Below are positions 17,377-47,700 of a DNA stretch of 64,000 bases, in pieces. Position numbers and translations under genes: made by a program. The number at the start of each line of letters is the position of its first letter. Position 1 is the stretch's first letter. The DNA is from Octopus vulgaris (lineage: Eukaryota): positions 107,260,001 to 107,324,000 of the forward strand of contig OX597814.1 of assembly GCA_951406725.2 (NCBI GenBank), read 5' to 3'. The notes below the pieces were generated by a model, which was not told the DNA's origin, made no database searches, and was given only the letters and a program-made list of their open reading frames with translations.

Positions 17377-17587
17377 GAAGAAAGGAAAGATAAACAAAAG
17401 GAAATAGAGAGAAAGTGTAAGGAAAAAACAGGAAGAAGAAAAAGTTCAATAATTCGATAGTCTTAGGTTTTAGTTAGGTTCAAAGTTCAATAAATCCGTT
17501 GTATGATAGATGAGAAGAGGGTTAGTTGAATGTAAGGTCTTGTAATTAGTTATTAACATAGCTTACACATGTCTGTATGTATGTATG

Positions 17588-17629
<42 letters not shown>

Positions 17630-18140
17630 AATATTTAATTATTATAAATATATAGGTGGCATGTAAGAAGCACCCACTATACTCCTGGAGTGGTTGGCAT
17701 TAGGAAGGGTATCCAGCTGTAGAAACATTGCCAGATCAGATTGGAGCTCTCCAGGCCTCACTCAAACCGTCCAACTCATGCTAGCATGAAAAACAGATGT
17801 TAAATGATGATTAATACTACATTCATATACATTTTAATCAACATATTCGTCATATAAACATTCATACAATGAGAATCGATTCTAAACTATATATGGACGT
17901 AACAAGTCTGAGCAGAGGGGCCATTTTTACAAGGTCCTTCTGGAGACTACCCCAACACCAAATGACAGACACTTGTAGTAAAGTTTGTTTGCCAACATAA
18001 CATGGCAGTCCTAGTTTAGGACGAATATTGCTGTAATTTAGCCCCAGGAGACATCGTCTCCAGCTGGCTATACGACACGATCTGTCTCCTTACATTTTCG
18101 AACAGGAATTTGGCAGTGCCACCTCTAGCCAAGCAATCAT

Positions 18141-18185
18141 TCTGTGCTGATGAAGGGAAATAACCTGGAAATTGCGATACACAGA
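18141..18185 (+). ncRNA. Minimal type I hammerhead ribozyme motif
   Basis: tctgtg-CTGATGA-agg gaaataa cct g-GAAA-ttgcga-TA-cacaga: 6 bp stem I, near-palindromic stem III. Confidence 0.7.
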
Positions 18186-18411
18186 TATTGTTTTGAGCTG
18201 AGTGGGGATGCTAGATTCCCTTGTTCGAAAATATAAGGACACAGATCATGTCGTATAGCCAGCTGGAGACACTGTCTCCTAGGGCTAAATTACAGCAACA
18301 TTCATCCTAAACTAGGACTGCCATGTTACGTTAGCAAGTAATCTTTACTCCAAAGTACTGTTGCTGAATATCTCATGCTGTGAGATTTAAAAATAGTAAT
18401 TTTCTAAATAG

Positions 18412-18498
18412 GTTATTGTGGCTGATGACTTCAATGGCCATGTTGGGCAGAACCTCCATGGATTACATGAGGTGCATGGTGGTTATGGCTTTGGTGCC
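18412..18498 (+). mobile_element. RTE LINE APE-endonuclease fragment
   Basis: Translates VIVADDFNGHVGQNLHGLHEVHGGYGFG, matching the GDFNGHVG...HGG.G.G motif. Confidence 0.75.
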
Positions 18499-18830
18499 TT
18501 TGATGAAGTATTTGGTGACCCTGTTGGTGCCTCTGATGAAGTGCCTCTCTAATGTCTAAAACTGCTAACATTCAAACATTATGTAAAATTTTTACTCTGA
18601 ATTTTTGCATAAATTGGTGTTGCAAGCAGAGTCGGTACACATACAACTGTAACTGATCGTTAAAGATGTGTTAAACGATTTCTTTATCTTATTACTCTTT
18701 GGATTGTATGTGTGAGGGTTTGTAATATATTCTTTCTATATAGTATATTCTTGCTAAACCAGAAATGTTGAAAAAATACAGAATGTACCCCAGTAGCTTT
18801 TTTTTATGTTGTATAATTTCTAATTTAGTA

Positions 18831-19026
18831 TACCGTATATATTTGACTATTTTGACTATAAAACGCCCTCACCTATAAGATGCACCCCTGACATACAAGG
18901 TTCAAATTGGGAATTTTAACATTGACCTGACTAGAAGTTATAGGATGTGCTTATAAGATGCACCCCCAACTTTAGGTGAAAATTTCAGGGGGAAAAATTG
19001 TGACTTATAGCCAAGTATATATGGTA
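18831..19026. mobile_element. Tc2/pogo-like MITE
   Basis: Inverted ends taccgtatatatttgactat / atagccaagtatatatggta with TA flanks. Confidence 0.65.
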
Positions 19027-20566
19027 ACCCTTTTGGGTAATCTAACTAAATTTGTACATTTCCAAAACATTTTTAACATCCTGTACAGAGCGAAAACAGC
19101 ATAATATTAAATTTGACCCAAGGGACAATAAATGAATGCCGTTACCATTAAATAACGACAGCAGGTCTCGGTCCAAACCGTTGATGTTTAGTCATCTGTT
19201 GGTGTTGTCATATTAACATTTATGTAATGTTAGTTGTTTTGGTTCTATAAGAATCTGTATCTACAGCAGGACCCTACATCTGTCCCCTCTATACCTTTAA
19301 TCTTTCAAATGCCACAAAGCCAACTCCCAGTACTACTTCCCACCCCTAATTAAGGGATCTTTGCTTTTTTTTTTTTGTCTTTTGCAAAGTATTTGGTGAC
19401 CCTGTTGATGCCACATAAAAAGCACCCAGTGCATTCTGTAAAGTGGTTGGCGTCAGAAAGGGCATTCAGTCGTAGAAATCGTACCAAAACAGACAATGGT
19501 ACCTGGTGTGGTACCTGGCATTACCAGCTCCAATCGAGCCGGCCAACCCATGCCGGCATGGAAAACGGACGTTAAATGATGATGATGAAATATCTCATAA
19601 ATTGTGAGGTTGTCTATTAAGAATCTCTACCTGTCCCCGAAGATATGACCGTTTTGGGATGGTTGTAAATAAAACAGAAGGTGATATAATAATGATATAG
19701 TTAGGAATGAATCAAAGCTAGAGCTGACAAGATATTTGAATGTCAAGTCATAAAATAATCACTTTTAGTTGGCCATCTTTGGTTTCTGGCGGATATTTCT
19801 GCAGGATTGTGCTTTGGTTTGAAAACGTACGGCCTCGGCCAAACGATCCCGTTTCTTTTGTTTATTATAATAACCATTTTATCATAACGGTTAAGTTTAA
19901 GCTCCATACAGTTTGTGTTGGCAGTAATAAATCTAAGAAAAGAAAAAAAAACAACTTGTAGAATGTTCAAGTTGAAAGGCAACAGCCAGGCCAACGATTA
20001 CACCTTACTCTTGTTGAGTATCTCTCACAGAAATCCAAATAGTAAACATAATAAAGACTCATCTCGCAGACATAAAAAAGGAAATTACGCAGTTCTCTCC
20101 CTTGTATCCAAACTTGTTCAATGTCCATAGAAGACATCAGAATTTGTAGGATATTGAAAAGGCATAAAATAATGATGATGCAGGACCAGGCAGTGGCTCT
20201 CGTGGCTTCTGATCTTAACTGATTGGAAGTATTATCATGTGCAGTGTTTTGTCTTGGTATAAAAGATGGGCTACAGCAAATATTCTGCTCAATACCACAA
20301 ATTTGCTTGTCAGTTGCTTAACCTTAACCAGTTGAGCAAGTCCCTTAGTGGCTGACGATATGTACATCTCTGATCCTGAACAGAAATAGTGGGGGAGCAT
20401 CATAACCATGTGTTGAGAGGGATTCTTTGGGATTTGGATAATTCACCTCTGCAAACATGGGTGTTTCGTTCAACATCCTTAAACGAACCTTATTCAGGAA
20501 CCTTTTAAGCAGGATGGTCAACCTGAAGAAAATTCTGAGCCTTGCCTGCAAGGTCATGTGCAGTTT

Positions 20567-22372
20567 GGGGTCCGGACAAAAGCTCCACGATTATATTTTG
20601 CAGTAATTTTTTTTGTTTTTAGAATTTTTAGTGGAATGTATCGACCCCAGAATTTTTTTTTTTTTCTTGTTACAGTTATTAGACTGCATCCAGTCATGCG
20701 GGGTCACCGCCTTGAATTCTGGAACTTTTAGCCAATTGTATCAACCACAGAATTTTTTTAGATGAATTTCAACCAGTGCATGAAATTAAGCCTATAAGGT
20801 CTTTCGATATGCTAGAAATAACAGCTAAATCTCTTGAAATTTTTTATAACCCCCCTCCCCTCAGTTATATTTTTTGGTTATTCTTCGTTTTTTTATTATT
20901 TTCTAAAAAAATCTTTACTTGTTTCAGTCACTGGACTGTGGCCATGCTGGGGCACCGCCTTGAAGAATTTTTAGTTGAATGTATCGACCCCAGAATCTTT
21001 TTAGGTGATTTTCAACCAGCACATAAAGTTAAGCTTAGAAGGTCTCTCCACATGCTAGAAATAACAGCTAAATCTTACAAATTTTTTTTTATAATTTCAT
21101 GTAAACACAAACAGAAATCGCGGTTGTAAAAAAACAAATATTATTTTCCAAAATTCCAGTTTTTAAGTAAACAATATATATTCAATCGAAAAACGGTATC
21201 AAAACATCTATGTCCCTCACAATGTTAGGTTCCGTGTGTTTCCTCGTTTTTAGAATAATTTAAAAGTTTGAAAATAAATCAGCCTTAACATCAATAATAG
21301 AATAACAGAACACAAGACTCTTAACTACTCAATGTACAATATTGTCCGAATTCTAACAAAAGAGAAAGCATTTACTTCAAGAAATGTGTAGGAACATAAA
21401 AACAATAAATACGTTTGACTGACCACACATACACACATAAAATGAAAGTCAATATTACACGTGTCTCTGGCATGAGTTTTCTTCACAAAAAAACAGAATT
21501 TGTCATTTTTATGGAGAAACACCCATCTCCCTGTTTAGGCAAACGATAAGAAGTATGTTGTATTAAGGCGGCAAGCTGGCAGAAATGTTAGCACGCCGGA
21601 CGAAATGCTTAGCCGTATTTCATCTGCCGTTACATTCTGAGTTCAAATACCGCCAAGGTCGACTTTGCCTTTCATCCTTTCGGGGTCGATAAATTAAGTA
21701 CCAGTTGCACACTGGGGTCGATCTAAACGACTTAATCCCTTTGTCTGTCCTTGTTTGTCCCCTCTATGTTTAGCCCCTTGTGGACAATAAAGAAATAAGA
21801 AATATGTTTGAATGACTAGCCTTCTGTTAGACCTTCAACAGCTGGAGAAAGTTCAAAAGGTCAATTTATTCTCATTAATCTGTAAACACTGAGAGAAGAA
21901 AACAAGACTTTAAATATATTTTTTAAAGTGCTTATTTTTGCTGCAACCAAAAAATTCTTCAAGTTAGTGCCCCAGAATGACCACAGTCCAATGACTGAAA
22001 CAAATAAAAAGATTTTTAGAGAATAAAAAAAAACCTAGGGGTTATAAAAAAATTTCAAGAGATTTGGCCGTTGTTTCTAGCATGTGGAGATATCCTCTAG
22101 GCTTAACTTGATGTGCTTGTTGAAAATCATTAAAACAAATTCTGGGGTCATTACATTTGACTAAAAATTCTTCAAGGTGGTTCCCTAGTATGGCTGCAGT
22201 CAAACAGCTGCAAGTAAAAAGGAAAAAAAAATTCTGGGGTCGATACGTTCAACTAAAAACTTTAAAGTGGTGCCCCAGCATGGCCACAGTCTAATAACTG
22301 AACAAGTAAAAGGTGAAAAAAAAACAAAAAAATAATCAGAAAATATAACAGTGGGGCTTTTGTCCTACACTC
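20567..22372. mobile_element. Foldback / Mutator-like non-autonomous element with long inverted arms
   Basis: gcagttt duplicated at 20560-20566 and 22373-22379; ggacaaaagc(t/c)ccac near both ends; arms of ~400 bp are reverse complements. Confidence 0.75.
21563..21800 (+). mobile_element. tRNA-derived SINE (ggcggcaagctggcagaa family)
   Basis: A-box tggcagaaatgtta, B-box gagttcaaatacc, central gcctttcatcctttcggggtcgataaattaagtacc; further copies near 8985, 33397, 38110, 40095, 47475, 47715, 58610. Confidence 0.85.
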
Positions 22373-24381
22373 GCAGTTTATCTTGATATGAGGCCACTAT
22401 GCCCTGCACATATGGTTGTGTTGCACGTACCTGGTGTACCCTTATCAGTTAGGTAAACATGATGGGTGTATTGGGCTTCGTATATTTGTAATCCAGTGTC
22501 ACTTGGATGGCGTATGCTGCTGTCTCACTTCGTCAACATCATCATCATTTAACGTCTGCTTTCCATGACATGTAAGCGTCATGGGTTGGACGGTTTGACT
22601 GAGGGCTGGCGAACCAGATGACTGCACCAGGCTCCAGTATTGATCTTGCAGAGTTTCTACAGCTGGATGCCCTTCTTAATGCCAACCACTCCGAGAGTGT
22701 AGTAAGTGCTTTTATGTGCCACAATAATAATAATAATAATAATGAGATTGTTGTATATTTTGATTTCTGTTTGTAATTTTCTGTGTTGTGATACCATGAG
22801 TGGCGTTGGTGGGGCTTTAAGAAAGAATCAATGCTGAAAAGAAATCTGAAGATGTATTTTGTCTGTCATCATTCAACATCCATTTTCCCTGTTGGCATCG
22901 GTTCAACAGTTTGATGGAATCCAAAGAACCAAATGATGCATTGTGCTCCAAAGTCTGTTTTGCCATGGTTTCTACAGCTGGACGCCCTTCCTACCACCAA
23001 TCAATTTACCAAGTATAACGAATGCTTTCTACTTGGTACTGGCATGAGTGAGATCACCAAGTGGATCTCTAAGGTAAAGGTTCTTTTCAAGTGGTTGGCT
23101 ACAATAAAGGAGGAGATAGTTCTATGTCCAGGGATGAGGGGTTAACATGTAAGAACAGATTTTTTTTTTTTTTGCTGTAGAGGGGCTTCATGGCTATTCA
23201 CATTATAGAAGTGAGGGTGGAAGTGTCTAGGATGGAGCTGAGAAGAGAGATGAAAATTGTAGTGATGAGGAGTCAGAGTGGAGACAAGAGAACAAGGAGT
23301 GCAGGTGGGTAGGGGTTACAAGAGCATATGGGAGAATGGAAGATGGTTAGAGACAGAGAATAAGTGACAGGGTGAATATAAGGAACAAATCTTGAAGACT
23401 ATTGGAGCGGGGGTGATGAGTGTCCAATATGACAGGAGTTGTTTGGCATAGAGAAGAGAAGGTGACTGACACTGCAAAAAGTTGGTGGGAAAGAACAGCA
23501 GAATAGTAATAATGATAGAGTAGACAGGAGAATGATGAGAGAAAAAGAAAGAGTTATGTGTGGTTGGATAGAGTGTATGAATGTGGGGCAAGCATATTGA
23601 ATAAGAAGAGAGAGACGTAAGGAGAAGGAGAAATACTTCTGTAATATCTATTATAGACTTGGTTGTCACTGTTGTGCCTCTATTTCCTTTGGACATCTAA
23701 AAGCTATGTCAGTTCCAAATTATGAGAATCTTCTTGAAAGCATAGCATAAAAGTGAAAATAGAATGATCATACAATGATCGTATAAATTTCTGGCTTCTG
23801 TGGCGGTGGCATGTAAAAAGCACCAACAGATCATGGTCATTGCCAGCCTCCTCTGACCTCTGTGCTGGTGGCACGTAAAAAGCACCCACTACACTCTCAG
23901 AGTGGTTGGCATTAGGAAGGGCATCCAGCTGTAGAGATACTGCCAGATCAGACTGGAGCCTGGTGCAGCCTCCTGGCTTCCCAGACACCCGTCGAACCGT
24001 CCAACACATGCCAGCATCGAAAGCAGACGTTAAACGATGATGATGAATGATCATATAAATTTAATAATTACTTAACATTTACTGAGTATTAACTGAAACA
24101 GCTGTAAGGGATGATGATTAATTTGCTGTTAATAATAAACAATTATTAACATCCCAATCTCCATTTTCCTTTATATATATATATATATATATACAAATAA
24201 GAAAATGGAGAAACAAATTTAGTTTGTTCTTCAACTTTCGAATATTATAATGTTGGATTATTTATTCATTTAACAAAATGAGAACCCCAATAGCATACAT
24301 ATATCTTATAATTCAATACATATAAGATAAGAATACAAATTATAAAAGTCATAATATAAATTATTGAAATCATTAAAATCA

Positions 24382-24517
24382 CTTCTTACAGCTGTTTCAG
24401 CCTATGGCTAAAAGTAGTTAATTTTATTTTCATTGCCTATAGGTGTCAACATACTGAGGTTGTAGGCATTTAAAAATAGGGTACATATATATATAACCAT
24501 AGGCCTCGTCAGAGGTT
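24382..24517 (-). ncRNA. Type I hammerhead motif with intact core and long stem II
   Basis: CTGACGA-ggcctatggtt...agccataggct-GAAAC-agct-GTA; 11 bp stem II, weak stem I. Confidence 0.7.
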
Positions 24518-24576
24518 ATAAGGAACTTTAAAAATATTAGTATTAATACATTAAACATGATACACGTATTATTTAA

Positions 24577-25307
<731 letters not shown>

Positions 25308-25517
25308 AATAATAGATCTCAAAAAGTATAAAATGAATGATAAATATGATATAAGTAAATGATATAATAAGTAATATATATATGAGAGTGAGTGTGGCGG
25401 GGGGCAGAAAGCTGATAATGATAATACATAAAAATATATGTTGATAGCTTCTTACAATTTTAACAAGTTTTGATCTGTTTTTGTCTCCTATTTTTTCTAT
25501 TTCTTCTCTTATTTCAG

Positions 25518-25712
25518 TGGTGGCAAGTTGATAAAATTAGTCCCCTGAAGTTGTACGACGACAACAAGTTCCTTGCAGGGTTCCAGCTGCGCCAGCTATT
25601 GTTTCGTGACAACCAACATGCTTATATTCAAAGCCAAATGGAAAAACTGTTCAAGTTGTACACAGATGGAGTCATTAAACCAGTCATTGACCAAGTTGCT
25701 TGTTTTGAAGAT
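25518..25712 (+). CDS. VAT1L: VAT-1-like exon ([17 protein letters not shown]...[13 protein letters not shown])
   Basis: tttcag acceptor, gtaagt donor, 195 nt, phase 0/0. Confidence 0.95.
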
Positions 25713-27373: not shown

Positions 27374-27451
27374 ATTGCAGAAGCAATGCAACGACTTCAT
27401 GACCGCAAAAATATTGGTAAAATTATTTTAGACCCGACTGTTGAGCCAAAG
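27374..27451 (+). CDS. VAT1L: VAT-1-like exon (IAEAMQRLHDRKNIGKIILDPTVEPK)
   Basis: aacag acceptor after T-rich tract, gtaaga donor, 78 nt; GKIIL marks the MDR domain C-terminus. Confidence 0.95.
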
Positions 27452-28943: not shown

Positions 28944-28973
28944 GGAAAATCCCAGGCTGCTGAGGAAGTGAAA
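28944..28973 (+). CDS. VAT1L: Microexon 1, 30 nt (GKSQAAEEVK)
   Basis: Long pyrimidine tract + aatag, gtaagt donor, phase 0/0, no stop, purine-rich. Confidence 0.8.
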
Positions 28974-29128
28974 GTAAGTTTTTCTTGCTGCAATACATAG
29001 CGGGACACACCCACCCTTGCACACCCACCTACACACACACACACACACTTATATATGCATTGCATACATCAGTCATACATAAATACATTTATACATAGAT
29101 ATATGCATATACATGTGCATACAGATGT

Positions 29129-29342
29129 GAGGGGCTGCTGAAAAGTTCCTGGTTTTAAGGGCATTGCAAAAGACCTGGTCGGAGGTGCAATCTTCTGAGT
29201 TCTTTTACAGGGCTTGGAAAAGCTGAATGATCGCTGCAATAAGTGTTTGAATCTGAGAGGGGAATATGTTGAATAAAATCATAATTAACAGATCCTCCTG
29301 TAATTTCTTTTACCCAAAGTTTGGAACTTTACAGCACCCCTC
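29129..29342 (+). mobile_element. Internally deleted mariner element
   Basis: TIRs gaggggctgctgaaaagttcc / ggaactttacagcacccctc; retains transposase C-terminus LQGLEKLNDRCNKCLNLRGEYVE*. Confidence 0.85.
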
Positions 29343-29496
29343 AAATATATATATGCATGCATTTATATATATATATTATAAAAAAAATGGTTGAATGTGG
29401 GTTCGTCCTTTAATTGGAGTAGTTTCCAGATGATTTCTAATGTTGATTCTTCATACTTTGATTTTACTGGTGTAAAATGGCTGAGATATGAAAGGT

Positions 29497-30120
29497 TATA
29501 TAAGTATGTTAAGTATATGATTTAAGTTACAACACAAAATTCAACAAATCCAATCATATTTTTCATAAATGGAGGAGATTAGATGTTAATATGGATTGAA
29601 TTATTTTTTATTCAATTCACTAGACGATTGTTTCATACAGAAAGACAATAAATTCATTTTAAGAATCTGAGTTGTCAAAGAGTACAATAAGACTAAATAA
29701 GAACTTTATAAAGAAAAAGGTAGACTTAAGAATTACATGGGTCTGGTGTTCTTGCTAATTTTTCATGTGCAATTGTTCTAGGAGTCATGTCTGTTTAAAA
29801 CACGACTAAACAGACATGACTCCTAGAACAATTACACATGAAAAATTAGCAAGAACACCAGACCCATGTAATTCTTAAGTCTACCTTTTTCTTTATTAAG
29901 TTCTTATTTTTTCTTATTCTGCTACAGAGGGGTATTCTTTGACAACTCAGATTCTTAAAATGAACTTATTGTCTTTCTATACAAAACGATCGTCTAGCGA
30001 ATTGAATAAAAAATAATTCAATCCATTTTAACATCAAATCTCCTCCAGTTACGAAAAATATGATTGAATTTGTTGAACTTTGTGTTATAAGTGAAATCAT
30101 ATACTTAACATACTTATATA
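29497..30120. repeat. Long inverted repeat (~300 bp arms, 9 nt loop)
   Basis: 29497-29797 is the reverse complement of 29807-30120. Confidence 0.95.
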
Positions 30121-30390
30121 TATACATAGTGGAGGCACGTGGCTTAGTGGTTAGGGTGTCATCATCATGATCGTAAGATTGTGGTTTCGATTCCTGGACC
30201 TGGCGATGCATTGTGTTCTTGAACAAAACACTTCATTTCAAGTTGCTCCAGTCCACTCAGCTGGCAAAAATGAGTAACACTGCGATGGACTGGGATCCCA
30301 TCCAGCTTGGTAACACTTACACCATGGAAACTGGGAAACCAGGGCCATGAGCCTTGCTAGGCTTTAAAAGGGCACATTTATTTATTTATT

Positions 30391-30425
<35 letters not shown>

Positions 30426-31642
30426 CCTGCATATGTATTTACACTTACATACCCACATACATATACATGCAGACATACAGTTGCACATGCACATAAATGC
30501 AGATATACCATACATGCATACACACATGCACATGAGCATATGTGCATCTGCACTTGTGCATACATCTACTCATATGTAGACACATACACACACGCATGTA
30601 ATCAGCGGCTGCCCAAAGATGTCACAATGATACTATCATTCCAATGTGACCTGATGTTGCTAAAACAGTGTACAATGTCTTCTGCCCAATTTTTGCAGTT
30701 GTCACCTACTCTTCCCCAACCATCCTTAAACCCCTATTCATTATATTCACCTCTCACTCGCTCCTTTTTTCTAACCATCTCCTTTACACACTTCCAACCT
30801 CTACTCACCCACATTCCTCGTTCTCCCCCGTCCCTAATCACTTTTACTCGCTTTCAGTGTCCACCCTAGCACCTCATCACTACAATTTTTATCTCCCTTT
30901 CTGGCCCTCATCATTGTTACTTCCTCCTTCTCTTCTATATTGAGAGGAGCCATGGAGCTCCTCCACAGCAACAAACCTGTTCAGTTCTGACCCCTTCTCT
31001 CATACTTTAACTCTCATTCCACAGCATAAAGCTACCTCTCTCCCTACTGTAGCCTTACTCAAAAGGGGTCTTAGTCTTGTGGGTTACTTGGCAACCTCAG
31101 TAATGTTAATGCCATGTAAAAAAAGAAAAAGCATTCGGCCCTTACTCTAAAGTGGTTGGTATTAGGAAGAGCATCCAGTCATAAAAAAAAAACATGCCAA
31201 AGCAGACTTGAGAGAACAATGTAGTCCTTGAATCTGTCGGATTCTGTCAAACTGTTTCACTCATTCCAGCATGGAATATTATCATCATAATCGTCATTTT
31301 AACTTCCATTTTTCTATGCTTGCATGGGTCGGACAGAATTTGTTGAAGCAGTTTTTCTGCTGCAGCTGCTGGATGCCTTTCCTGTCACCAACCCTCGCCT
31401 GTTTCCAAGTCATACTCTCCATGACCTGACATTGACACCAGACATTCCATGACGATTCCTGGCTTTCGGTTTACAATTCCTCAAGTGTTCTTTTATTCTT
31501 TTACTTGTTTCAGTCATTTGACTTTGGCCATGCTGGAGCACTGTCTTTAGTTGAACAAATCGACCCCAAGACTTATTCTTTGTAAGCCTATTACTTATTC
31601 TATCAGTCCCTTTTGCTGAACCACTAAGTTATGGGGATGTAA

Positions 31643-31677
<35 letters not shown>

Positions 31678-31747
31678 TGTGTATATATGTATATATATGT
31701 GTATGTATATATGTATATATATGTGTGTGTATATATGTATATATATA

Positions 31748-31792
<45 letters not shown>

Positions 31793-33164
31793 CAAGCTTC
31801 TTTCAGTTTCCATCTACCAAATCCACTCACAAAGCTTTGATTGGCCCAATAGAAGACAATTGCCCAACATGCCACACAGTGGGACTGAACCTGGGACCAT
31901 GTGGTTGGGAACGGCCAAAATAAAATTTGATAAAACTATTCAATCTATCTTACAATGTTCTTGAATTCCCTTTTTGTTTCAGTCATTGGACTGTGGCCAC
32001 GCTGGGGCAGCACCTTGAAGAGTTTGGGCAGCCAAGTCTACTCATTTTAAGTCTGGAATTTGTTTTATCAGACCCTTTGCTAAACTGCTCAGTTATAGGG
32101 GCTGTAAACAAACCAACACCAGTTATCAAGTAGTGGTAGGACAGATTCATGTACATAGATACACGCACAAGAGGCTTCCACACAGTTTCCATCTACCTGA
32201 TTTACTCCAGAAGGAGTCTGGCCATAACCATGGTATAATGAGTTGGAGGTATGCTTGTCTACGAAGTAAAAAATCTGTCGAGGGTCGACTATCTTTTATT
32301 TGTTTCAATCACTAAACTGTGGCCATGCTGGGGCATCACCTTGAAGAATTCTTAGTCAAATGATTCAACACCAGTACATATTCTATCAGTGTCTTTTGCT
32401 GAACCACTAAGCAGTGGTAGGGAACACACGTCACACAATGGGCTTCTTCCAGTTTCCATCTACCAAATCCACTCACAAAGCTTTGGTTGGCCCATGGTTA
32501 TAGTAGAATACCCTTGCCCAAGGTGCCACACAATGGGACTGAACCTGGGACCATGTGGTTGGAAAGCAAGCTTCTTACCACACAGCCACACTTGTGCCTA
32601 GAGAATATTTGACTGAGATTTTAAATTCTATGACCATGGACTTACTTTTCTTTCTCCCTAAATCAATACGTAAACAATCAATATCACTCAAACCAATCAA
32701 CTTCATATTTGTTGCTCTCCTTTAACAAAAGACTTCTCTCTCTCTCTCTCTCCCTCCCTCTCTCTCTCTCCCTCCCTCTCTCTCTTTATCGTTTTAATCC
32801 TTTACAAATATAAGTTGGTTTTTCTTTTGTCTCAAGATGGTTTTCTTCAATCCCAAGTGACCTTATATCAACATGGACTCCATCAGCACCTGCTCTAACA
32901 CACAACCATTAGATCTTCTCATCACCAACTTTCCCTAACGCTTCTTTTCTCTCTAAACCTAATCTCTCTCTCCACAGCCAATCCTTAAGAAATAAATTCC
33001 TAACAGATGGCATTTCTCTGTTTATTCCTCTATTAGTATTCATTTATTAGTATTCTTTTATGCATTTCAACCCAAAGGCTGTGGCCATGCTGGGACATCA
33101 CCAGTGTTATCACCTCCTTTTCATGGCAATTCTTATGTGGGTTGTCTTTTGTTGAAAGAAGGAG

Positions 33165-33380
33165 TTCAACATTGCTGCCCTCTTTTGAGTTTCTTTATTG
33201 GGGACATTGGACAGCAAGGGGTGACCCCAATTCCATGTAGATCTTTCAGATGTTTTGGCAAGGTATTAAATAGCCATGGTCCCTTGAATCCCAAGCTATT
33301 GCAGTACATGGTCTTCACTCTAGATAGGATAACTGGGACCTTCAGAACAGGAACATCCAGTTTAGGGGTTGGTATAACTC
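33165..33380 (-). mobile_element. CR1/L2-group LINE ORF2 C-terminal fragment
   Basis: CNSLGFKGPWLFNTLPKHLKDLHG resembles the GPxLFNxLP C-terminal motif. Confidence 0.6.
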
Positions 33381-33719
33381 TAAAAAAAACAAAAAAAGGC
33401 GGCAAGCTGGCAGAAATGTTAGCATGCCAGGTGAAATGCTTGGCAGTATTTCGTTTGTCTTTACGTTCCGAGTTCAAATTCAGCTGAGGTCAACTTTGCC
33501 TTTCATTCTTTTGGGGTTCATAAATTATCAGTTGCATACTGGGGTCGATCTAATCGACTGTCCCTTTCCTAAAGGTTTTGGGCCTTGTGCCTAGTGTAGA
33601 AAAGAATATTTTTTAATCAATGAGCTAACAGCACAGCCAGGGCCGGCCCTAGAGTTGCTGGTGCCTAGGGCAAACTGGACTTCGGTGCTCTAACAAGAAT
33701 AATTTTTGTTAAATTTGTA

Positions 33720-34110
33720 GGAGTGGCTGTGTGGTAAGTAGCTTGCTTATGAACCACATAGTTCCAGGTTCAGTCCCACTATGTGGCACCTTGGGCAAGT
33801 GTCTTCTATTATAGCCTCGGGCTGACCAAAGCCTTGTGAGTGGATTTGGTAGACAGAAACTGAAAGAAGCCCGTTGTATATCTGTATATGTATGTATGTG
33901 TGTGCATATGTTTGTGTGTCTGTGTTTGTCCTCCCAACATCGCTTGACAACCGATGTTGGAGTGTTTACGTCCCTGTAACTTAGTGGTTTGGCAAAAGAG
34001 ACCGATAGAATAAGTACTAGGCATACAAAGAATAAGTTCTTGGGTCGACTTGCTTGACGAAAGGCAGTGCTCCAGCATAGCCACATTCAAATGACCGAAA
34101 CAAGTAAGAG
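33720..34110 (+). mobile_element. Near full-length SINE (ggagtggctgtgtggtaag family, internal CA/GT microsatellite)
   Basis: tRNA-like head ggttcagtccc, body gggcaagtgtcttct...gaaactgaaagaagccc, tail gaaacaagtaag; copies near 8640, 10310, 31495, 34370, 45460, 54545, 57000, 62055. Confidence 0.85.
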
Positions 34111-34442
34111 TAAGGAGAAAAACTGAAAATATAGACTATAAAGCAGGTGGTGCCAGATACATGGTACCCAAGTTGCCGGTACCTTGAGCTGGCCTTGATC
34201 ACAGCAACATCCCAGTTCAGAGAGAATAAATATATTGGAAATTGGTTTTAAAACTACTAAGAATTACTAAGATGAATGGTTTTGTTTTATGTCTTTACAA
34301 AAGTAAGGAGGAGTAATTTCTAAATTTACGTATTTCCTCCTACGTCACATCATCTCCTTGTTTCTTATCCTTCAGTCAGTAGACTGTGGCCATGCTAGAG
34401 CACTGCCTTGAAGAATTTTAGTCAAATGGATGGACTCTAGTG

Positions 34443-34478
<36 letters not shown>

Positions 34479-36886
34479 TTAAAGCCTGGTTCTTATTCTA
34501 TCAGTCACTTTTGCTGAACTGTAAGTTACAGGGACTTAAATACACACACACACACACACACACAATGAGCCTTTTTCAGTTTCTGTCTACCAAATCCACT
34601 CAAAAGGTTTTGGTAAGCTTGAGGATATAATAAAAGACACTTCCCCAAGGTGCCATACAGTGGGACTGAACCCAAAACCATGTGGTTGGGAAGCAAACTT
34701 CTTACCACACAGCCATGTCTATGCCTATGGCTGCTCTCCACCCCCACCACCTCTAACCTTCTCTCAAACACTCCACTGACCATCTCTCCACCAATGTCCA
34801 CCATTCACTTTCTGCCCCTATAATCTAACAGGCCATCACTCTCCTTTCACACTCCTGCAAACCCACCCACCCAGCCATCCTCATTTCTTTGTCCTTCTTT
34901 TTCTCCAGCTTGTTGTGCCTCTTGGTGGACCCTGACACTTTATCTCTAACATTCTTTTTTCTCATTCTTGAACGGTTCCTCTTCCCCTGTCAGATTTTAA
35001 TCCCTTACCATTCAGATTAGTTTATCAAATGTAATACTCATTCCTATTGTCTTGAATTAATCCTGCGTTATCTTGTAGCTTTGAGATTTTGATGATGAGG
35101 ATTATCATCATCATCATCGTTTAACGTTCTCCTTCCATGCTGGCATAGGTGGGACGGTTTGACAAGAACTGGCCAGGCAGAAGCCTGCACCAGACTTCTG
35201 TGACTGCTTTGGTAGGATTTTTACAGCTGGGTGCTCTTTCTAACAGCAGCCACTCAGCAGAGTGGACTTAGTGCTTTTTATGCGACACTAGCACAAGTGA
35301 GGTCAGTTTTGGCAAGGTTTTTATAGCTGGATGCCCTTCCTAACACCAACCACTCAGCAGAGTGGACTTAGTGCTTTTTATGTGGCACAAGAACATGCGA
35401 GGTCAGTTTTGGCAAGGTTTTTACAGCTAGGAGCCCTTCCTAACACCAACCACTTCATAGTGTGGACTGGGTGCTTTTAAGTGGCACCTGCACTACAGGG
35501 TCACCAAGTATATTGCAAGACCAAAAAACTCTTTTGAGAGGGGAAGGGGCATTGGAGGAAGTGGTCTTGTGTCGAATGATGAAAGGTTTTAGTGAGACAG
35601 AGAGACAGAAACATGTGTTTTGCTGTAGAGGAGGTACAAGGTTACCTAGCCAGAGAGAGAGAGAGATCGGGAATGAAGACAGAAACAAATGTGCTGCTGC
35701 AAAGGAAATACATGGTTATCCAACCTGAGGGAAGTGCAGGAGAAGGAGAGTGGGAGACGGTAGGATAAAGATGATGGCAAAGTACCAGGCATATGCAGTG
35801 ATACAGTGAGACAGGGTGTGAGTGGAAGACATAGGTTGGAAGCTAGTGGATAGCAATGATACAGTGGCACAGGGCCAAGAGGACAGGATTGGGGAGTGGG
35901 AGGTAAGCATAGTGCATGAAGTGGAAATGTGGGCAAGAGATGTGAGACATTTTCTTAATTCTGGGTGGGACACACAGCGGTTCTAGAACTCAGTTTCACT
36001 GACATGGGTGGGTAATAGTATATTTTTAGAATGACATTGTAGGGTAGGTAGGAGAGGCCAGATCTGGCCACATTGAACATAAAACAGGTAGGATATTTGG
36101 CTCATCATTTGGCTCAAAGCCACATCTTTCAAAGCTACTCTCAGCTGAGGGAGGTCTTGCCTTGCAAGTGACTTGGTGACCCCACCAGTGCTGGTGCCAC
36201 ATAAAAAGCACCCAGTCCACACTCTGTAAAGTGGTCAGTGTTAGGAAGGGAATCCAGCTATAGAAACTAAGCCAAAGGAGGTACTGGAGCTCAACACAGT
36301 TCTCTGGTTTGTTTGATTCTGTCCAACCCATGCCAGTATGGAGAACAAGAACATTGAATAAGGATAATTAAACTTCCTGCAATGAACTCCAAGAGCGATT
36401 AAAATATATTTGAAAGAATGATTTCTGTGTCATTTCAAAAAGAAAAATTTAATGGTGGTTTGTTAATGGAGTTGATTACGGTCATGCTGATATGAATGCC
36501 GTGGACTCCCGGCCAGTTTGAGTCATCAGGATTAATTAGTGGAGGACAGTGTCGTTAGAGAACACTGAACAAAATACCTTGTGATATTTGGTTAAGTACC
36601 TTTAAGTTCTTGGTTCAAATCCAGCCCCAGTCCCACTTTGCCTTTCTGCCAGTCAATAAGTTCTGAGGTGGATACAATGAATATAGTACCCTTGGACATA
36701 GTACCTTAGAACATAGTACCCTCAGAATGTAGTACCCCATCCTGACCACAGTGTTCTCTATACCATGCATGCACTTTTGGTTATCCTTACTGTCTTCCTT
36801 TCACCCACCTTACTGCTGCTTTCTGTCCCCTTCTTTTACCCTTTTCTGGCTAGTTGTAGTGTACCCAAGTACTATAAAGAATAAAC

Positions 36887-37170
36887 TTGTTGTTGTTGTT
36901 ATTATGTGGTGAAATCTCACAGCTTATACTGCTGGGCACGATGGAAAGTGTTAGCTGTCCACAGCCAGCAGACGAGGGTGACACTTGTTTACTGGTCATG
37001 CTTCAAGAACTCTGCGAAGAATTCTTCTAGTTCCAAGTAATGCTGATTTTTGTAGGTGTTCTCTCTTCACGCTTGCACCAATCTTTTTCAGCCATGTTGG
37101 TAGTTGATTGCTGATACTTCAAAGTGCACCAATTACTATTGGTATCATGTCTACTCTCCTCATTGACATA
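36887..37170 (-). mobile_element. 5'-truncated R4/Dong-type non-LTR retrotransposon
   Basis: MIPIVIGAL*SISNQLPTWLKKIGASVKREHLQKSALLGTRRILRRVLEA*; flanked by (TAA)n and (CAA)n on its own strand. Confidence 0.8.
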
Positions 37171-37172
37171 TA

Positions 37173-37213
<41 letters not shown>

Positions 37214-37515
37214 GGTGTTAAGCTGGCAAAATCGTTACCATTCCAGATAAAATACTTCGCCGCTTTTTGTCTTTCTTCATGTTCTAAGTTCACATTCTGC
37301 CATGGTGGACTTTACCATTTCTCCTTTTATAAGAATATTGATAATTTAATATTTTATTAGGTGTAAAGTTTGTAAACTTTGTCTATTGTAATTCTTGATG
37401 TTTTTCTAGAATTAAATTCCATCAAATTGTCTTTAAGGTGTGTTATAGTATCAAATTCCATTTGTATTTTTGGGTATGTTGCTTCTCATAACAATGAGTT
37501 TTATTTTTGTTCCAG

Positions 37516-37545
37516 GCCCCATCTGAGACCAGTGCCACAACAGTG
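37516..37545 (+). CDS. VAT1L: Microexon 2, 30 nt (APSETSATTV)
   Basis: tttttgttccag acceptor, gtaagt donor, phase 0/0. Confidence 0.78.
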
Positions 37546-38578
37546 GTAAGTTCGGAAGAAAAATACAAAACAGTGGTTTTTAATAATGGAATCAATAATG
37601 AAGAGATATACAAATGAACCCTTTTGTTACCATATTTCTATTGGAATACACTGTCTTTTTTTTTTCCATTTAATTTTGAAAATAACTAAGAATTTAGTAA
37701 AATAACTTTGTTGTTATTAAGCTGGCGCTTAGAATGTAAACAGGAAATTTTGATGGGTTTTAATTTAAATCATTTTAAAATAAGGAATTTATATCACAGA
37801 ACTAAGGGTAGTTTCAGGCTGGTTCTTTGTAGCATCAGACGTTCTGCTTGGGAGTTCTATCTCTCAGCTTTTATAACATTTATTTAAAACTTCTAGAACC
37901 TTTTGCAGGAAAATTCACAAAACTTACATTCAAGTCTGTTGTTATTTGGTTACACTATAGCTGCTCTAATTGATAGAACCATGTTCTCATAGGGATTAAT
38001 TCCTTTTCTGGTGACCACAGTTAAAATTTTATAGCTGCCCTTTTCATTTTGTTGCAATATAGAATGGGCTGCAATCCTAAACTGAGGAGTCTAAATGAGA
38101 TAATTTAAAACTCGGCAGAATCGTTAGCAGGTTGGGCAAAATGTTTACCAGCATTTCATCCATATTTACATTCTGAGATCAAATTCTGCCAAGGTGGACT
38201 TTGTATCCTTTTGGTGTTGATAAAATAAGTACCAGTCATGTACTGGGGGTTGATGTAATCAACTTACTGCCTCCTTTGAAATTGCTGGCCTTGTGCCAAA
38301 ATTTGAAACCTATATTTTAACATAGTTGTCTCACATATATTAATTAATATTTTACAATGATTGTCTTACACTTACTAATTAGATGTTTATAATTAAAATC
38401 CCATAACTAACCAAAGAAGATTCTTTATATAACAACTTTATTCAGATTCTAAATAACTAAATTCAGTTCCAACAGAAATTTTCTAATTTTCAATTAAAAA
38501 CATTTTCATTTTTCACCAATTTTCAAATTAAAATTTTAAAATGTTTCATCTTTTTTTTATATATTTAATTATTTGCAG

Positions 38579-38608
38579 GCCAAGAGTGAAGAAGACACTG
38601 GTGCTGAG
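38579..38608 (+). CDS. VAT1L: Microexon 3, 30 nt (AKSEEDTGAE)
   Basis: tttgcag acceptor, GAG|gtaaga donor, phase 0/0, acidic peptide. Confidence 0.82.
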
Positions 38609-38875
38609 GTAAGAAAACTTTTCTCCAAACTTCAAAAACATAAGATCTAATCTATCATTACTTTAGCATTGTTGATGCTGGAATGTGATAATCCATGTGA
38701 AAACTGTAGCATAATGCTCCATGGAGCAGCTGCAGCATAAGGCTTCCATGTGAAGACTGCAATATAACACTCCATGTGAATTGTTTCTCTGTTCCTTTTT
38801 GTAACAACCCACTTTTTCTAGATCTCCTTATATTCTTCGGTTTTCCTTCACTTACTGCAAGTACCATTAACTAAC

Positions 38876-39591
38876 CAAAGGTGGGCACCGTTAATCAAAG
38901 TTAATTTCGTTAACTGTTAATAATGATATATAATAATAATGAAATTATTGTATACAGTGCTCAGGTGCACCACAACTTGTCAAAAAGTGCATATAAAGCA
39001 TATTGCAGTAATGTACAAATGTCTGGGAAGTGAACAGTGTATGAGTCGGATATATGCTTGCGTGTGTATGGAGGGGAGAAAATCAGGTGTAGTGTTGGCG
39101 AATTTCAGGAAACATGGAAGTTTTGAAGGATGCAGTGCTCCGACAACTAACAACTGATGCCGGCAGTTTGTTCCATGCTTCAGCAACTCTAAGCGTGAAA
39201 AAATGTTTCCGAAAGTCATGGGAGCTGTGCTGTTTTCTGACTTTGTAAACATGTCCACGGGTGTTAAACAGATGGAGTTTGAAAAGGTGCGCAGAGTTAT
39301 TGTTGATCCATTAACCAAGAAATTAACTTTAATAACTGTTACTCAGTTAATTCTTTAAAAGTGTAATAGAAGTTATCGATAAACCATTAGCATTAATTTT
39401 TATTATAGAAAAATGCAATCTGTTTTTGCTCTAAAACTACCTTTAAAAAGTGCCAAAACTATAAAATCTGTTATGGAAGTTGACTTAACGGCAGTTAATT
39501 AGTCCAATAATGATTTTCATAGTTAACTTAAAAGTTAAATTGTTAACAAAAATGTTAATTTTGTTGATTAATGGTTTGGTGCCCAGGTTTG
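38876..39591. mobile_element. hAT-type MITE
   Basis: Ends caaaggtgggcacc / ggtgcccaggtttg; 8 bp flanks taactaac / tcactaac. Confidence 0.7.
38925..39310 (-). mobile_element. CR1-clade LINE 3' fragment nested in the hAT MITE
   Basis: NTRGHVYKVRKQHSSHDFRKHFFTLRVAEAWNKLPASVV...* followed by a 3' UTR and (ATT)n tail. Confidence 0.85.
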
Positions 39592-40319
39592 TCACTAACA
39601 ATTTCCATTATATACAACATAAAATCATTTGACCATAACAAAGAAGGCATCTCTCCTGGACCCAGTGTCATTAATGTTCAGCCCCAATGTCATTGGCATC
39701 CCACCCAATGTCCATTAATGCTCATCCACTCATTAGAAAATTCTGTTTAGACAATTTTTCAATAAATGTTCTTCTCTAGGTTTCATTAAAATTAGAAACC
39801 AACAGGGGCAGCTGTACTTTAAGGGTTAAGCGGTTAGAATATAAGAAAAGGGGCCCAGAGCAGACCATGTTCCTTGCTGTTAAGGAGCTACCTACATGGT
39901 TACCTACATTTTACAAGAGGATGGAGGTGACCAGGACAGAGTTGGGAAGAGATGAAAATAGTGGGGAAGAGGTATCAGGGTGGACTCGTAAGTTATGAGG
40001 GGAGTAGAGGAAAAGAGAATAAAGTGTGGGATGATAGAGGCTGGGGGAGTCAGGTATAGTTAGGGATCAAGAATGGGTGAGGAGTGTGATGCGGTTTCAA
40101 GTTTTGACACAAGGCTAGCAATTTCAAGGGAAGGATTGAGGCAATGACATCAACCCCAGTACGTAACCAGTACTTATTTTATCAACCTCGAAAGGATGAT
40201 AGGTAAAGTCGACCTCGGTGGAATTTGAACTCAGAACCTAAAGACTGGCTGAACTGAAAAATGCTGCTAAGCATTTTGCCTCATGTGCTAACAATTCTGC
40301 CAGCTTGCCACCTTAGGAA

Positions 40320-41030
40320 TCATCATCATCATCGTTTAACGTCCGCTTGCCATGCTGGCATGGGTTGGATGGTTTGACTGAGGACTAGTGAGCCAGAAGG
40401 CTGCAACAGGCTCCAATCTGATCTGGCAGAGTTTCTACAGCTGGATGCCCTTCCTAACACCAACCACTCCGAGAGTGTAGTGAATGTTTTTTACATGCCA
40501 CCGGCACGGGAGCCAGTCTGGCAGCACTGGCAATGACCACGCTCAAATAGCGCGTTTAACATTCCACTGGCACAGGTGCCAATCAGGCGGTACTCTCATC
40601 GGCCACGACAGTGATTTCACTTGCCTCAACAGGTTTCCACAAGCATAGTTTATTGTCCAATGCTTGAAGGGTACTCTTAAATGGGGTGGTTATACAGCAC
40701 TGGCATAGGCCATGGTTATGGTCTCCTTTGGCTTGCTGGGTTTTCTCAAGCACAGCATATTTCCAAAGGTCTCCATCACTTGTCATTACCTTGGTGAGGC
40801 CCAATGTTTGAAGGTTGTGCTTCACCACCTCATCCCAGGTCTTCCTGGGTCCACCTCTTTCACAGGTTCCCTCAACTGCTAGAGTGTGACACCTTTTCAC
40901 ACAGCTGTCCTCATCCATACACAACACATGACCATACCACCGCAGTCGTCTCTCTTGCACACCACATCTGATGCTTCTTATCCCCAACTTTTCTCTCAGG
41001 GTGCTTTCACTCTGTCATGTCTCCACACTG
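40320..41030 (-). mobile_element. 5'-truncated RTE-clade LINE
   Basis: RRLRWYGHVLCM...GGPRKTWDEVV C-terminal RTE motifs, then 3' UTR ending gttaaacgatgatgatg. Confidence 0.9.
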
Positions 41031-41434
41031 ACAGAATGACAAATAAATTCTTTTCTACTCTAGGCACAAGGTCCAAAAGTTTTGGAGAGAGGGCCAGTTG
41101 ATTAGATCAGCCCCAGTACGCAACTGGTACTTAATTTATCAACTCCAAAACGATGAAAGGCAAAGTCAACCTCGGTGGAATTTGAAAGAATGATAAATAT
41201 ATGTTGAAGGGGAAGTTGGAAAGAGTAGGTGATGACTGTAGAGACTGGGGTAGAAAGGGAGTGAGGGGGTGATCAATGTTACATAGGGGTTGCAGAGGAG
41301 AGTAGGGGATGGCTGACTGTAAAGAAAGATGTGAAGGAAGGTGGAATAGTGATAATGAGATACGGGAGGTGGGGAACAGACATCTCTCTCTCTCTATGTA
41401 TATTGATAGGTGCCACTTGTCTCTGTATTTCTAG

Positions 41435-41458
41435 CCACCCGATACTGGTTCCGATGAA
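41435..41458 (+). CDS. VAT1L: Microexon 4, 24 nt (PPDTGSDE)
   Basis: tttctag acceptor, gtaagt donor, phase 0/0; DTG motif shared with microexon 3. Confidence 0.72.
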
Positions 41459-44625: not shown

Positions 44626-44670
44626 ATGGTCTGTGTATAATTAAATTTTCTAATATATTTGAAATTTTAG

Positions 44671-44736
44671 TCAAAAGAAGCCAAACCTGAAGAACCGGCT
44701 GAGAAAACTGAAGAAGCTGCAGAAAATGCAGAATGA
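44671..44736 (+). CDS. VAT1L: Stop-containing exon (SKEAKPEEPAEKTEEAAENAE*)
   Basis: ttttag acceptor, phase 0, Glu/Ala/Lys-rich peptide ending TGA; gtaaga donor at 44759. Confidence 0.82.
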   Translation, partial: SKEAKPEEPAEKTEEAAENAE

Positions 44737-47700
44737 ATAAAAGATTTGAAAATTAATGGTAAGAACGTTGCTGTTGTCTTCGTCTGTGTCCAATTTGGAG
44801 GGAGGTGTAATGTAGGTGTGATGAACATGTGGGAAGAGTGAAACATGCCTACATGGACACACACGCACACACACACCAATTGTCTTTCATGTCCACGAGC
44901 AAGTTGAAGAGTGAAACACACACTCGCACACATACAAATGCATGTCTTCTGTTTTCACGAACCGCTTATGTTTTTTTTTTTTTTGTGTATGTATGCACAT
45001 ATGCGTTTATGTGCATGTATATGTGAGATTAAAGAAATAATTTTTTACAGAAATTTTCATTTCAGTTTTGTGATACCATCTCCGAAGGAATGCCTGTGTG
45101 TGGCATATCTGTTGTCAGGTGTGGTGTGTGTATATGGTGTGGTGTGGTGTGTATAGTTTGGTGTGTATGTGTGTAACTATTACACACACACATACTCATA
45201 CACACTAATACACTTGTCTATAAAGTATTGTGATATCATTTTTAATTCTTCATCAAATTGGCTTTGCTGGATTTTCTATTTAATAATTTGGAACTTTCTA
45301 TTCTCTGACACTCCAGATAAAAATTGAAGATTTCAGATTTACCTGCTGAATAACTCATTTAAATCACACACATATTTGTGAAGTTGGTGGGGGAGGGGCC
45401 AGATAGAATGTTACCAAAAAAAAATGCAAAACGATCAATCCTCAACATTAAGGATATCTCTTTTATTTGTTTCAATCATTTGACTGTGGCCATACTGGAG
45501 CACCGCCTTTAGTCGAGCAAATCGACCCCAGGACTTATTCTTTGTAAGCCTAATACTTATTCTATCGGCCTCTTTTGCCAAACCACTAATTTACAGGGAC
45601 GCAAACACACCAGCATCGGTTGTCAAGCGATGTTGGGGGGACAAACACAGATACACAAACACACACACACACACACACACACATACATATATACGACGGG
45701 CTTCTTTCAGTTTCCCTCTACCAAATCCACTCACAAAGATTTGGTTGGCCTGAGGCTATAGTAGAAGACACTTGCCCAAGGTGCCACACAGTGGGACTGA
45801 ACCCAGAACCATGTGGTTCATAAGCAAGCTACTTACCACACAGCCACATATTTATTTATTCAATACATTGTTGTTGTACTTTTTGTTAGGTTTTGTTGTT
45901 GTGTTTTCATCTTTTGTAGTAATTTATGGAAGTTTTGTGAATGTCTTTTATTCAAGCTTCACCTCAATGACCAGTGTAGCATGAACCTTTTTTATGTCAT
46001 AAATGTTTGCTATTTTCGCAGTGAAAAACACTTTCTGACATTTAGCATTTGTTTGAATCCCTATTGTTTTCATATTTCAAAGTTTGTCATTTTAGCAATT
46101 TCAAATATAGACTTTGATATTTCCTGTCAAAAGCATTTTATCTAAACTGAAGATGACGCTTACATGAAAACTTTTTAATTTGAGCAAATAAGGAATATTC
46201 ATCTAAACAGTAATCCCAATTTAAATGTTTTGACACAAAATATTATGTGTCTTGTGTCAAAATAAATGATTTAATTTCAGTTGTAATATCTGAGTCTACC
46301 AATGGCGTTACTCTACTACTTCTATGAGCTACAACCAAGTAGGTTAGTAGAACAAAAATGGGTGATTATTGAATAAAAGCTCTCAACTACATTAATACTT
46401 AAATTTCAGTCAGCCTTGCTCTGGCAGTGTTTAACTTTATAGCAACACCTGGTTGAAGTTATTATCGCCAGCTTAAGCAGGGAGTTGTTGTTGGCTGAAT
46501 TCAGGTGTTGGTGACTTATCTCGTATTTCTTAGAGGAATTTTTCCAGGTACTGTCCGAAGGTTATGGAATCTTTATCCTTCTTTGATTTATTGATGGATC
46601 ATGCTGAAAAGAACCTAACTTGTTGAGGGTAAAAAAGAAAAGTAAAGGTCATCACAATGGGGACAAGTAGGAAAACAAACTGGACAAATATAAATTGGTC
46701 ATTTGGGTGTTGAATTTTTACTTCAGCACTTTTTTGTTGAACCATTGTGTTTCTGTATGGCATGGTTGTTTCCTTTTATTGCACTCACACTTATGCTCTG
46801 CAATTCATTCACATATGCTACACTATGTCTCTCCTGTATGGATTGTGGTTCCATTTCTACATTCTCTCCATACATTTCATATGACTCTTTCCAAATATAA
46901 TAACTAAACAGAACTTATCATAGAATGTCTTGTTACTAAACAGAACATGTTAAATAACATTTTGTCTTTTTTTGCAGGCCAAAGACACAAGAACCATCAT
47001 GCAGAGACAAAAGTGTTTTCCAGTTTACCATTTTAAGCCACCTTATTTCCAGCTTGTTTTCCAAACACCTAAATACTGTTGCTACTGCTGTTCCATAATA
47101 AAACAGAAGAATGCCATGACCACCACCACCACTCCCACAGCCACCACTCCCCACACACTTCCTTTTGGTATTACTGGGCTGTTGTTTTTGTTATTGTTGT
47201 TGTCTCGATGCTGGTCCAAGTTGTCTTTTGATGTATTTGTAACAACTTTTCTGGTTTAGTTTAGTCAAATATTCACTTGAATTATTTCTATCGACTTGAA
47301 CAGCTAATAGAAGAAAAAAGAAAGTTCTAGATTGAAACTAATTTCTTTGTTTTTTGGGGATTTTTTGTTTGTGTTTTTTTCTTTTAATTAACTCTTGAAA
47401 AAATTATTTGGGTATTTTCATTAATTGTTCATTTCATTTACTGCTATTTCTTCTTCTTCTTATTATTATTATTAAAGGCAGTGAGCTGGCAGAATCGTTA
47501 GCACGCTGGACGAAATGCTTAGCAGTATTTCGCCCATTGCTACTTTTTAGGTTCAAATTCCACCAAGGTCGACTTTGCCTTTCATCCTTTCAGGGTCGAT
47601 AAATTAAGTACCAGTAAAACACTGGGGTCGATGTAATCGACTAGTCCCCTCCCCTCAAATTTCAGGCCTTGTGCCTAGAATAGAAATAATAATAATTATT

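Follow-up and report, generated by a model that had tools for sequence, protein, structure and literature searches.

The stretch of DNA described here, referred to below as the window, comprises 64,000 nucleotides (nt) of the Octopus vulgaris genome (GenBank assembly GCA_951406725.2, contig OX597814.1, positions 107,260,001 to 107,324,000 of the forward strand) and carries all but the first two coding exons of a gene assigned to VAT1L. Between the exon that closes the folded core of the encoded protein (beginning at 27374) and the exon that carries the stop codon (beginning at 44671) lie four short exons, which encode the middle 38 residues of the acidic tail. Public gene models join these exons in patterns that make exons 1 and 4 optional, and spliced contigs join exons 3 and 4 to the stop-codon exon. 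The four short exons are as follows.

28944 to 28973, plus strand: short tail exon 1, 30 nt, phase 0/0, GKSQAAEEVK, net charge 0
37516 to 37545, plus strand: short tail exon 2, 30 nt, phase 0/0, APSETSATTV, net charge -1, five Ser/Thr
38579 to 38608, plus strand: short tail exon 3, 30 nt, phase 0/0, AKSEEDTGAE, net charge -3
41435 to 41458, plus strand: short tail exon 4, 24 nt, phase 0/0, PPDTGSDE, net charge -3

These exons had been proposed by an earlier reading of the DNA letters, here called the original prediction, and the positions, sizes, peptides and phases that it gave are correct for all four, each being preceded by AG and followed by GTAAG. Its figure of 17 kb for their spread applies to the 17,219 bp gap between the 27374 and 44671 exons; the four exons themselves occupy 12,515 bp. 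Models were joined from the two upstream exons, the six core exons, any subset of the short exons and the stop-codon exon, and with the true upstream exons all 16 subsets remain open (399-437 amino acids), which bears out the claim that any subset keeps the frame and means that all four exons are phase 0/0.

Splice signals were scored with a generic splice-site matrix, its frequencies approximate, over frame-preserving candidates of 3-51 nt, with the threshold chosen afterwards as the score of the weakest of the four exons. Within the 17.2 kb gap the short exons are the top four candidates, and no additional tail exon outscores them there, the next best being a 15-nt candidate at 36653 that is absent from the models. 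No candidate reaches the threshold on the minus strand of the gap and six do so on the minus strand of the whole window, while shuffled sequence yields at least four candidates in 3 of 40 shuffles (mean 1.2). The splice sites of the short exons score on par with those of constitutive exons. Splice signals by themselves are only moderate evidence for the four exons; what is decisive is the exact match to named proteins, the conservation in O. bimaculoides and Argonauta, and the spliced contigs that join exon 3, exon 4 and the stop-codon exon.

Tails recorded in gene models and spliced contigs

With the presence of exons 1 to 4 written in order as digits, the joined exons are identical to four protein records, P0016 (1111), P0017 (1110), P0018 (0111) and P0015 (0110), which are named as O. 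vulgaris and O. sinensis X1-X4. The octopus proteins concerned are annotated as synaptic vesicle membrane protein VAT-1 homolog-like and are identical in the two species (O. sinensis XP_029644056.1/065.1/074.1/082.1, O. vulgaris CAI9715714.1-720.1). The X1-X4 proteins of O. bimaculoides (XP_014779831.1-834.1), which are also automatic models, show the same four exon patterns. Alternative use of the short exons, as originally predicted, is thus found as a two-by-two pattern in the gene models of two species, in which exons 1 and 4 are the optional ones. Automatic gene models of this kind in general follow RNA evidence.

Among the 11 members of the protein cluster, exon 1 is present in six, exon 2 in ten, exon 3 in eight and exon 4, in frame, in four. 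Exon 3 occurs in all eight X1-X4 proteins and is absent from three models found in O. vulgaris only, and exon 2 is absent only from P0022, one of these three, in which the intron after 27451 is read through. In P0019, exon 2 is extended by 27 nt and followed directly by the stop-codon exon, and in P0024 exon 2 is joined to an alternative acceptor at 41410 with a shift of frame, exon 3 being skipped. This acceptor lies 25 nt upstream of exon 4, and P0024 ends in 15 basic and hydrophobic residues. In no member of the cluster is exon 2 or exon 3 alone cleanly skipped in frame.

The contig check drew on 24 listed runs, all of them contigs and none recorded as RNA, of which four were compared with 44630-44850. 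In three of these four runs, from three studies, a contig covers the stop-codon exon without mismatch, and the 30 letters upstream of it correspond to the final 6 nt of exon 3 followed by the whole of exon 4; the fourth run yielded no contig there, which is uninformative. Junctions that include the predicted segments are therefore present for exon 3, exon 4 and the stop-codon exon, exons 1 and 2 lying outside the contig span, and exons 3 and 4 are included by splicing. The same contigs leave the stop-codon exon at 44758 and resume at 46978.

Isoforms with both optional cassettes are, accordingly, already in public automatic gene models. Among the matches listed, no description of these exons was found in the literature on microexons (cephalopod, mollusc or bilaterian) or on VAT1L and VAT-1 isoforms, and VAT1 is absent from the main text of bioRxiv 10.64898/2026.09.05.749416, the supplements of which may list these exons.

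The rest of the gene and the encoded protein

The remaining parts of the gene are given below; the joined model that includes all four short exons equals P0016, of 437 amino acids.

G000:C1:107186586-107186797 and 107246135-107246264, upstream of the window: coding exons 1 and 2 of the VAT1L gene
9247 to 9462, plus strand: coding exon 3, MDR core
11410 to 11552, plus strand: coding exon 4, MDR core
13773 to 13876, plus strand: coding exon 5, MDR core
17068 to 17123, plus strand: coding exon 6, aligned to the Switch segment of human VAT-1 (as described in excerpts of PMC7822847)
25518 to 25712, plus strand: coding exon 7, with a weak ADH_zinc_N_2 match (E 0.0025, under the Pfam cut-off)
27374 to 27451, plus strand: coding exon 8, which closes the folded core (final strand: residues 367-371)
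44671 to 44758, plus strand: stop-codon exon, 21 codons, TGA at 44734-44736, then 22 nt of 3′ untranslated region (UTR)
44759 to 46977, plus strand: 3′ UTR intron, GT..AG, 2,219 nt, spliced in contigs of three runs
46978 to 47009, plus strand: start of the next, untranslated exon, matched by the loose-end contig letters of three runs

The exon at 44671 does carry the stop codon, as had been proposed, but it is not the final exon, since an intron begins 22 nt past the TGA. Nonsense-mediated decay usually needs a distance of 50-55 nt, and by this rule the 3′ UTR intron is too near to the stop codon to elicit it. When single exons were compared with Pfam, one of four gave a match, which was below threshold; in a protein search with the exon 25518-25712 as query, Octopus VAT-1 homolog-like proteins were the top matches. 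The highest-scoring 30-nt exon-like stretch of the window, at 23181-23210, was rejected as a pseudo-exon: it belongs to a dispersed repeat, 39 of the 40 matches scored lying elsewhere, and is found in no octopus model. It sits in the intron 17124-25517, the same intron position as that of an insert in gastropod proteins considered below. More distant members of the MDR family were matched elsewhere in the genome at G000:C22:23093848-23094546 (26%) and G000:C1:93245028-93245450 (29%), in open frames of 389 and 206 amino acids, the former being possibly an intron-poor gene.

Residues 34-375 of the protein align ungapped (342 residues) to human VAT1L, PDB entry 4A27, at 475 bits, compared with 340 bits for VAT-1. 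In a midpoint-rooted tree of 25 core sequences, in which three rows were labelled bacterial by guess, the octopus protein groups with three vertebrate VAT1L rows (support 100/99), apart from fish VAT1 and amphioxus, and the gene is on this comparison of sequences placed on the VAT1L rather than the VAT1 side of the family. The ungapped alignment to 4A27 and a confident AlphaFold core indicate the two-domain MDR fold, and IAGGVG aligns to the nucleotide-binding motif AAGGVG of human VAT-1, with a different first residue (motif from excerpts of PMC7822847). NADPH binding, quinone reduction and dimer formation are described in the same excerpts for human VAT-1 only; according to these excerpts, VAT-1 was first isolated from Torpedo cholinergic vesicles. 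The link to synaptic vesicles on which the original prediction drew is consequently weak, for the protein isolated from these vesicles is the paralogue of the octopus gene product.

The tail lies outside the solved structure, as the alignment to the PDB entry of human VAT1L goes no further than residue 375. AlphaFold, run with a 50-sequence alignment (mean pLDDT 78.3 overall), gives values below 50 and no secondary structure for residues 381-437, which are predicted to be disordered. The four recorded tails comprise 59, 51, 49 and 41 residues, with net charges of -12, -9, -12 and -9, respectively; D and E make up a fraction of 0.19-0.38 across the 16 tails measured, and 0.35 in the mammal-type VAT1L tail. 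A strong tuning of charge and Ser/Thr sites, as originally envisaged, does not fit these values, in that the net charge is the same with or without exon 1, and of the four exons the one rich in Ser/Thr, exon 2, varies least in its presence. In Argonauta all four segments are found in the same order and length, with a net charge of -12, and identity amounts to 26 of their 38 residues, compared with 323 of 345 for the core. Between Octopus and Argonauta, tail length and charge are thus better kept than tail sequence. The literature searched gave no function for any VAT1L tail. To our knowledge, VAT1L itself has no known molecular function.

Tail variation among relatives and the question of duplication

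The suggestion that the array is restricted to a lineage holds for the proteins seen: no matching exons occur in other mollusc tails, and the mammal-type VAT1L tail is a constant 34 residues in all 16 vertebrate-type sequences with a full tail (five named mammals and 11 others), two further rows being without a tail. Tail isoform differences were encountered in 3 of 12 invertebrate groups, with six additional residues in Lineus and 13 in Liolophura at this same junction, and a difference at the end in Tachypleus. Four gastropods vary within the core rather than in the tail. Here, proteins of Littorina, Babylonia, Physella and Biomphalaria (P0146, P0148, P0037, P0160, P0084) carry, immediately ahead of the WW pair, an optional insert of 8 residues, at the position of the window's intron 17124-25517 and in the region that aligns to the NADP-coupled Switch segment of human VAT-1, and Biomphalaria has an additional optional insert of 5 residues. 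The 8-residue insert is conserved in sequence across snails and absent from octopus models, and it is possibly more functional than the tail exons.

Longer VAT1L tails, of up to 118 residues and a net charge of -26, were noted among Logan proteins that are sister to the octopods in the tree (P0008, P0028, P0030, P0031, P0033, P0035, P0007; and P0003-P0005, P0026, P0027) and most likely come from squids or cuttlefish. One such lineage has six 10-residue modules in six patterns among seven proteins, three of the modules dropping out singly (P0034, which differs in sequence, was left unscored), and another shows four tail patterns among five proteins. The six modules have 2-6 of 10 residues in common pairwise and look duplicated, but as they are known from proteins without a genome they could represent exons, alleles of a repeat or variants of the assembly. 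When the octopus exons were compared with these modules, 2 of 32 comparisons gave an uncorrected p <0.05, so that exon-by-exon homology is not established. A search with shorter cephalopod tail fragments returned seven proteins, none with a cephalopod tail, and no Nautilus record appeared in any protein search.

The VAT-1 homolog of amphioxus forms a 72-member cluster with isoform numbers up to at least X50. In the 15 members aligned (P0177, P0354-P0367; 527-678 amino acids), the core is constant within a species and optional blocks are found in the acidic tail of 139-290 residues. As this gene falls on the VAT1 side of the tree, its variable tail likely arose separately.

The resemblance of exon 3 to exon 4 had been taken as a hint of duplication. 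In a shuffle test the two are alike in protein (p 0.009; 0.027 in Argonauta, both uncorrected), yet six pairs were tested and the best value is therefore borderline. At the DNA level the comparison gives p 0.083, the flanking introns give 0.92 and 0.36, and the shared DTG reads DAG and VTG in Argonauta. Among the flank comparisons, 3 of 12 gave p 0.03-0.05, all of them between T-rich upstream flanks among exons 1-3. No second copy of exons 1, 3 or 4 was found in the genome by DNA search, exon 2 not having been searched. A 60-kb stretch elsewhere on the same contig (G000:C1:158968500-159028499) has 73 exon-like candidates on its minus strand, all of 30 nt and in a repeating order, and a single candidate, of 40 nt, on the other strand; many of the 73 are closed in frame 0 and are therefore not phase 0. 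This number means that short symmetric exons are not rare in the genome, and the four-exon array of VAT1L is small.

Interpretation and comparison with known systems

The reading favoured here, to which we give a probability of about 0.55, is that exons 1 and 4 are two independent optional cassettes around the near-constant exons 2 and 3, and that the resulting four tails form a disordered acidic spacer whose length and charge are modestly adjusted. In such a spacer, tail length and charge would likely matter more than exact sequence. Exon 1 would lengthen the stem beside the folded core without adding net charge, and exon 4 would contribute three negative charges; on a dimer, as human VAT-1 is according to excerpts of PMC7822847, the two tails might bias the approach to acidic membranes or to partners. 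An unfolded tail with a phase-0 junction would also allow exons to be gained easily at that junction, which would explain the separate expansions in octopods, in squid- or cuttlefish-like lineages and in amphioxus VAT1. The splicing anatomy itself is observed, the disorder is a prediction, and the function is put forward as a proposal.

Several points weigh against this reading. The optional status of exons 1 and 4 rests on gene models, the contigs showing inclusion and no skip junction, and contigs drop rarer forms. The joins of exons 1 and 2 are likewise supported by gene models, the contigs having been compared with 44630-44850. P0019, P0022 and P0024 lack exon 3 by other routes, so that the constancy of exons 2 and 3 is not strict. 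The change is also small (10-18 residues, 0-3 charges) and may for that reason have no function, and individual microexon deletions in zebrafish had mostly mild or no effect (excerpts of PMC12626424).

Compatible with two optional cassettes, and not exclusive of them, is the possibility that the eMIC (Srrm234) programme controls exons 1 and 4 as neural cassettes, so that the tail would be long in neurons and short in other tissues; this remains tentative. Both exons are short, frame-preserving and optional. Upstream of exon 1 there is an AG-free zone of 83 nt with three TGC motifs at -43, -32 and -23, and upstream of exon 4 there are 12 UCUC/CUCU in 60 nt, together with a TGC at -24 and a motif resembling a branch point at -32, motifs that are among the features given for eMIC targets (excerpts of PMC8797185); neural exons are also said to recur in the same gene families over bilaterians (main text of bioRxiv 10.64898/2026.09.05.749416). 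However, the UCUC count of exon 4 stems from a CT microsatellite, the AG-free zone is longest, at 101 nt, for the constant exon 3 (n=4), and the splice sites are as strong as those of constitutive exons, in contrast to the very weak 3′ sites of eMIC targets in the fly. Only exon 4 falls within 3-27 nt, and the contig runs are coded and have no tissue labels.

Just as likely as neural eMIC control is that the optional exons represent tolerated splicing variation in a disordered tail, the alternative forms having no selected function. The low sequence constraint, the small physical change, the odd additional O. vulgaris models and the abundance of short symmetric exons in the genome would all agree with this, but two species agree in which two exons are optional, and the four exons persist in Argonauta with length and charge kept.

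That the exons are phosphorylation cassettes, with sites for acidophilic kinases and added by tandem exon duplication, is unlikely. The consensus of such kinases is S/T-x-x-D/E, and acidic sequence meets it easily; the protein likeness of exons 3 and 4 and the duplicated look of the six squid- or cuttlefish-like modules would favour duplication, but the borderline best p value, the DNA comparison, the unlike introns and the altered DTG in Argonauta speak against it. Least probable is the original prediction's scheme of up to 16 tails made by free combination of the four exons, for although every one of the 16 subsets keeps an open frame, P0019 and P0024 lack exon 3, and more combinations exist in related lineages, the records match 4 of the 16 subsets, 12 have no record among the proteins fetched, and a clean skip of exon 2 or 3 alone is missing from the cluster.

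A wider and rather doubtful proposal is that the acidic tail of VAT1 and VAT1L is a recurrent hotspot of combinatorial short-exon arrays: four exons in octopods, six or more duplicated 30-nt exons in squids or cuttlefish and dozens of isoforms in amphioxus VAT1, arising independently, switched on in neurons and setting how long and how charged the disordered tail is, by which contact between enzyme and membrane would be controlled. Should the arrays prove to have arisen separately on two paralogues and to be neural, they would clearly exemplify the repeated gain of short exons in a single region of a protein; otherwise the octopus array would amount to two optional exons of an ordinary kind in a floppy tail. 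The stronger lead, and the one that deserves pursuit, lies outside the window, in the repeated appearance of variable acidic tails across the family, and the natural isoform series (four in octopus, more in squid- or cuttlefish-like lineages and in amphioxus) offers a ladder with which to probe the acidic tail of a VAT-1-family enzyme.

Among known systems, human and other mammalian VAT1L is like the octopus protein in giving the best sequence match to a structure, in falling within the same clade and in having an acidic tail after the core, and vertebrate VAT1L apparently has an intron at the same place between core and tail, where a frog model (P0182) runs off; it differs in that its tail is one constant stretch. 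Human VAT1 (6LHR/6LII) shares the MDR/quinone-oxidoreductase fold, the region of the NADPH-binding motif and the Switch segment, but is a paralogue of 393 residues that ends at the core without a tail (excerpts of PMC7822847). The Branchiostoma VAT-1 homolog likewise combines an MDR core unchanged within species with an acidic tail of optional blocks, yet it is a VAT1-side paralogue, known from proteins alone, with a tail of 139-290 residues and far more variation. Compared with the neural microexons governed by eMIC and SRRM3/4, the octopus exons are similarly short and frame-preserving, all being phase 0/0 with exons 1 and 4 optional in the gene models of two species, and some upstream motifs are held in common (excerpts of PMC8797185 and PMC12626424). 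The eMIC cis-code consists of a weak 3′ site, a long AG-free zone, UGC near the 3′ site, a UCUC tract and a strong branch point (PMC8797185, same excerpts), features that are mixed across the four octopus exons. The octopus exons differ in having strong splice sites and in lying in a disordered tail. Three of the four, exons 1-3, are 30 nt long and belong to the 28-51 nt class, exon 4 alone being of the 3-27 nt microexon length, and of the neural members of the 28-51 nt class 60.3% responded to loss of srrm3/4 in zebrafish (PMC12626424, same excerpts).

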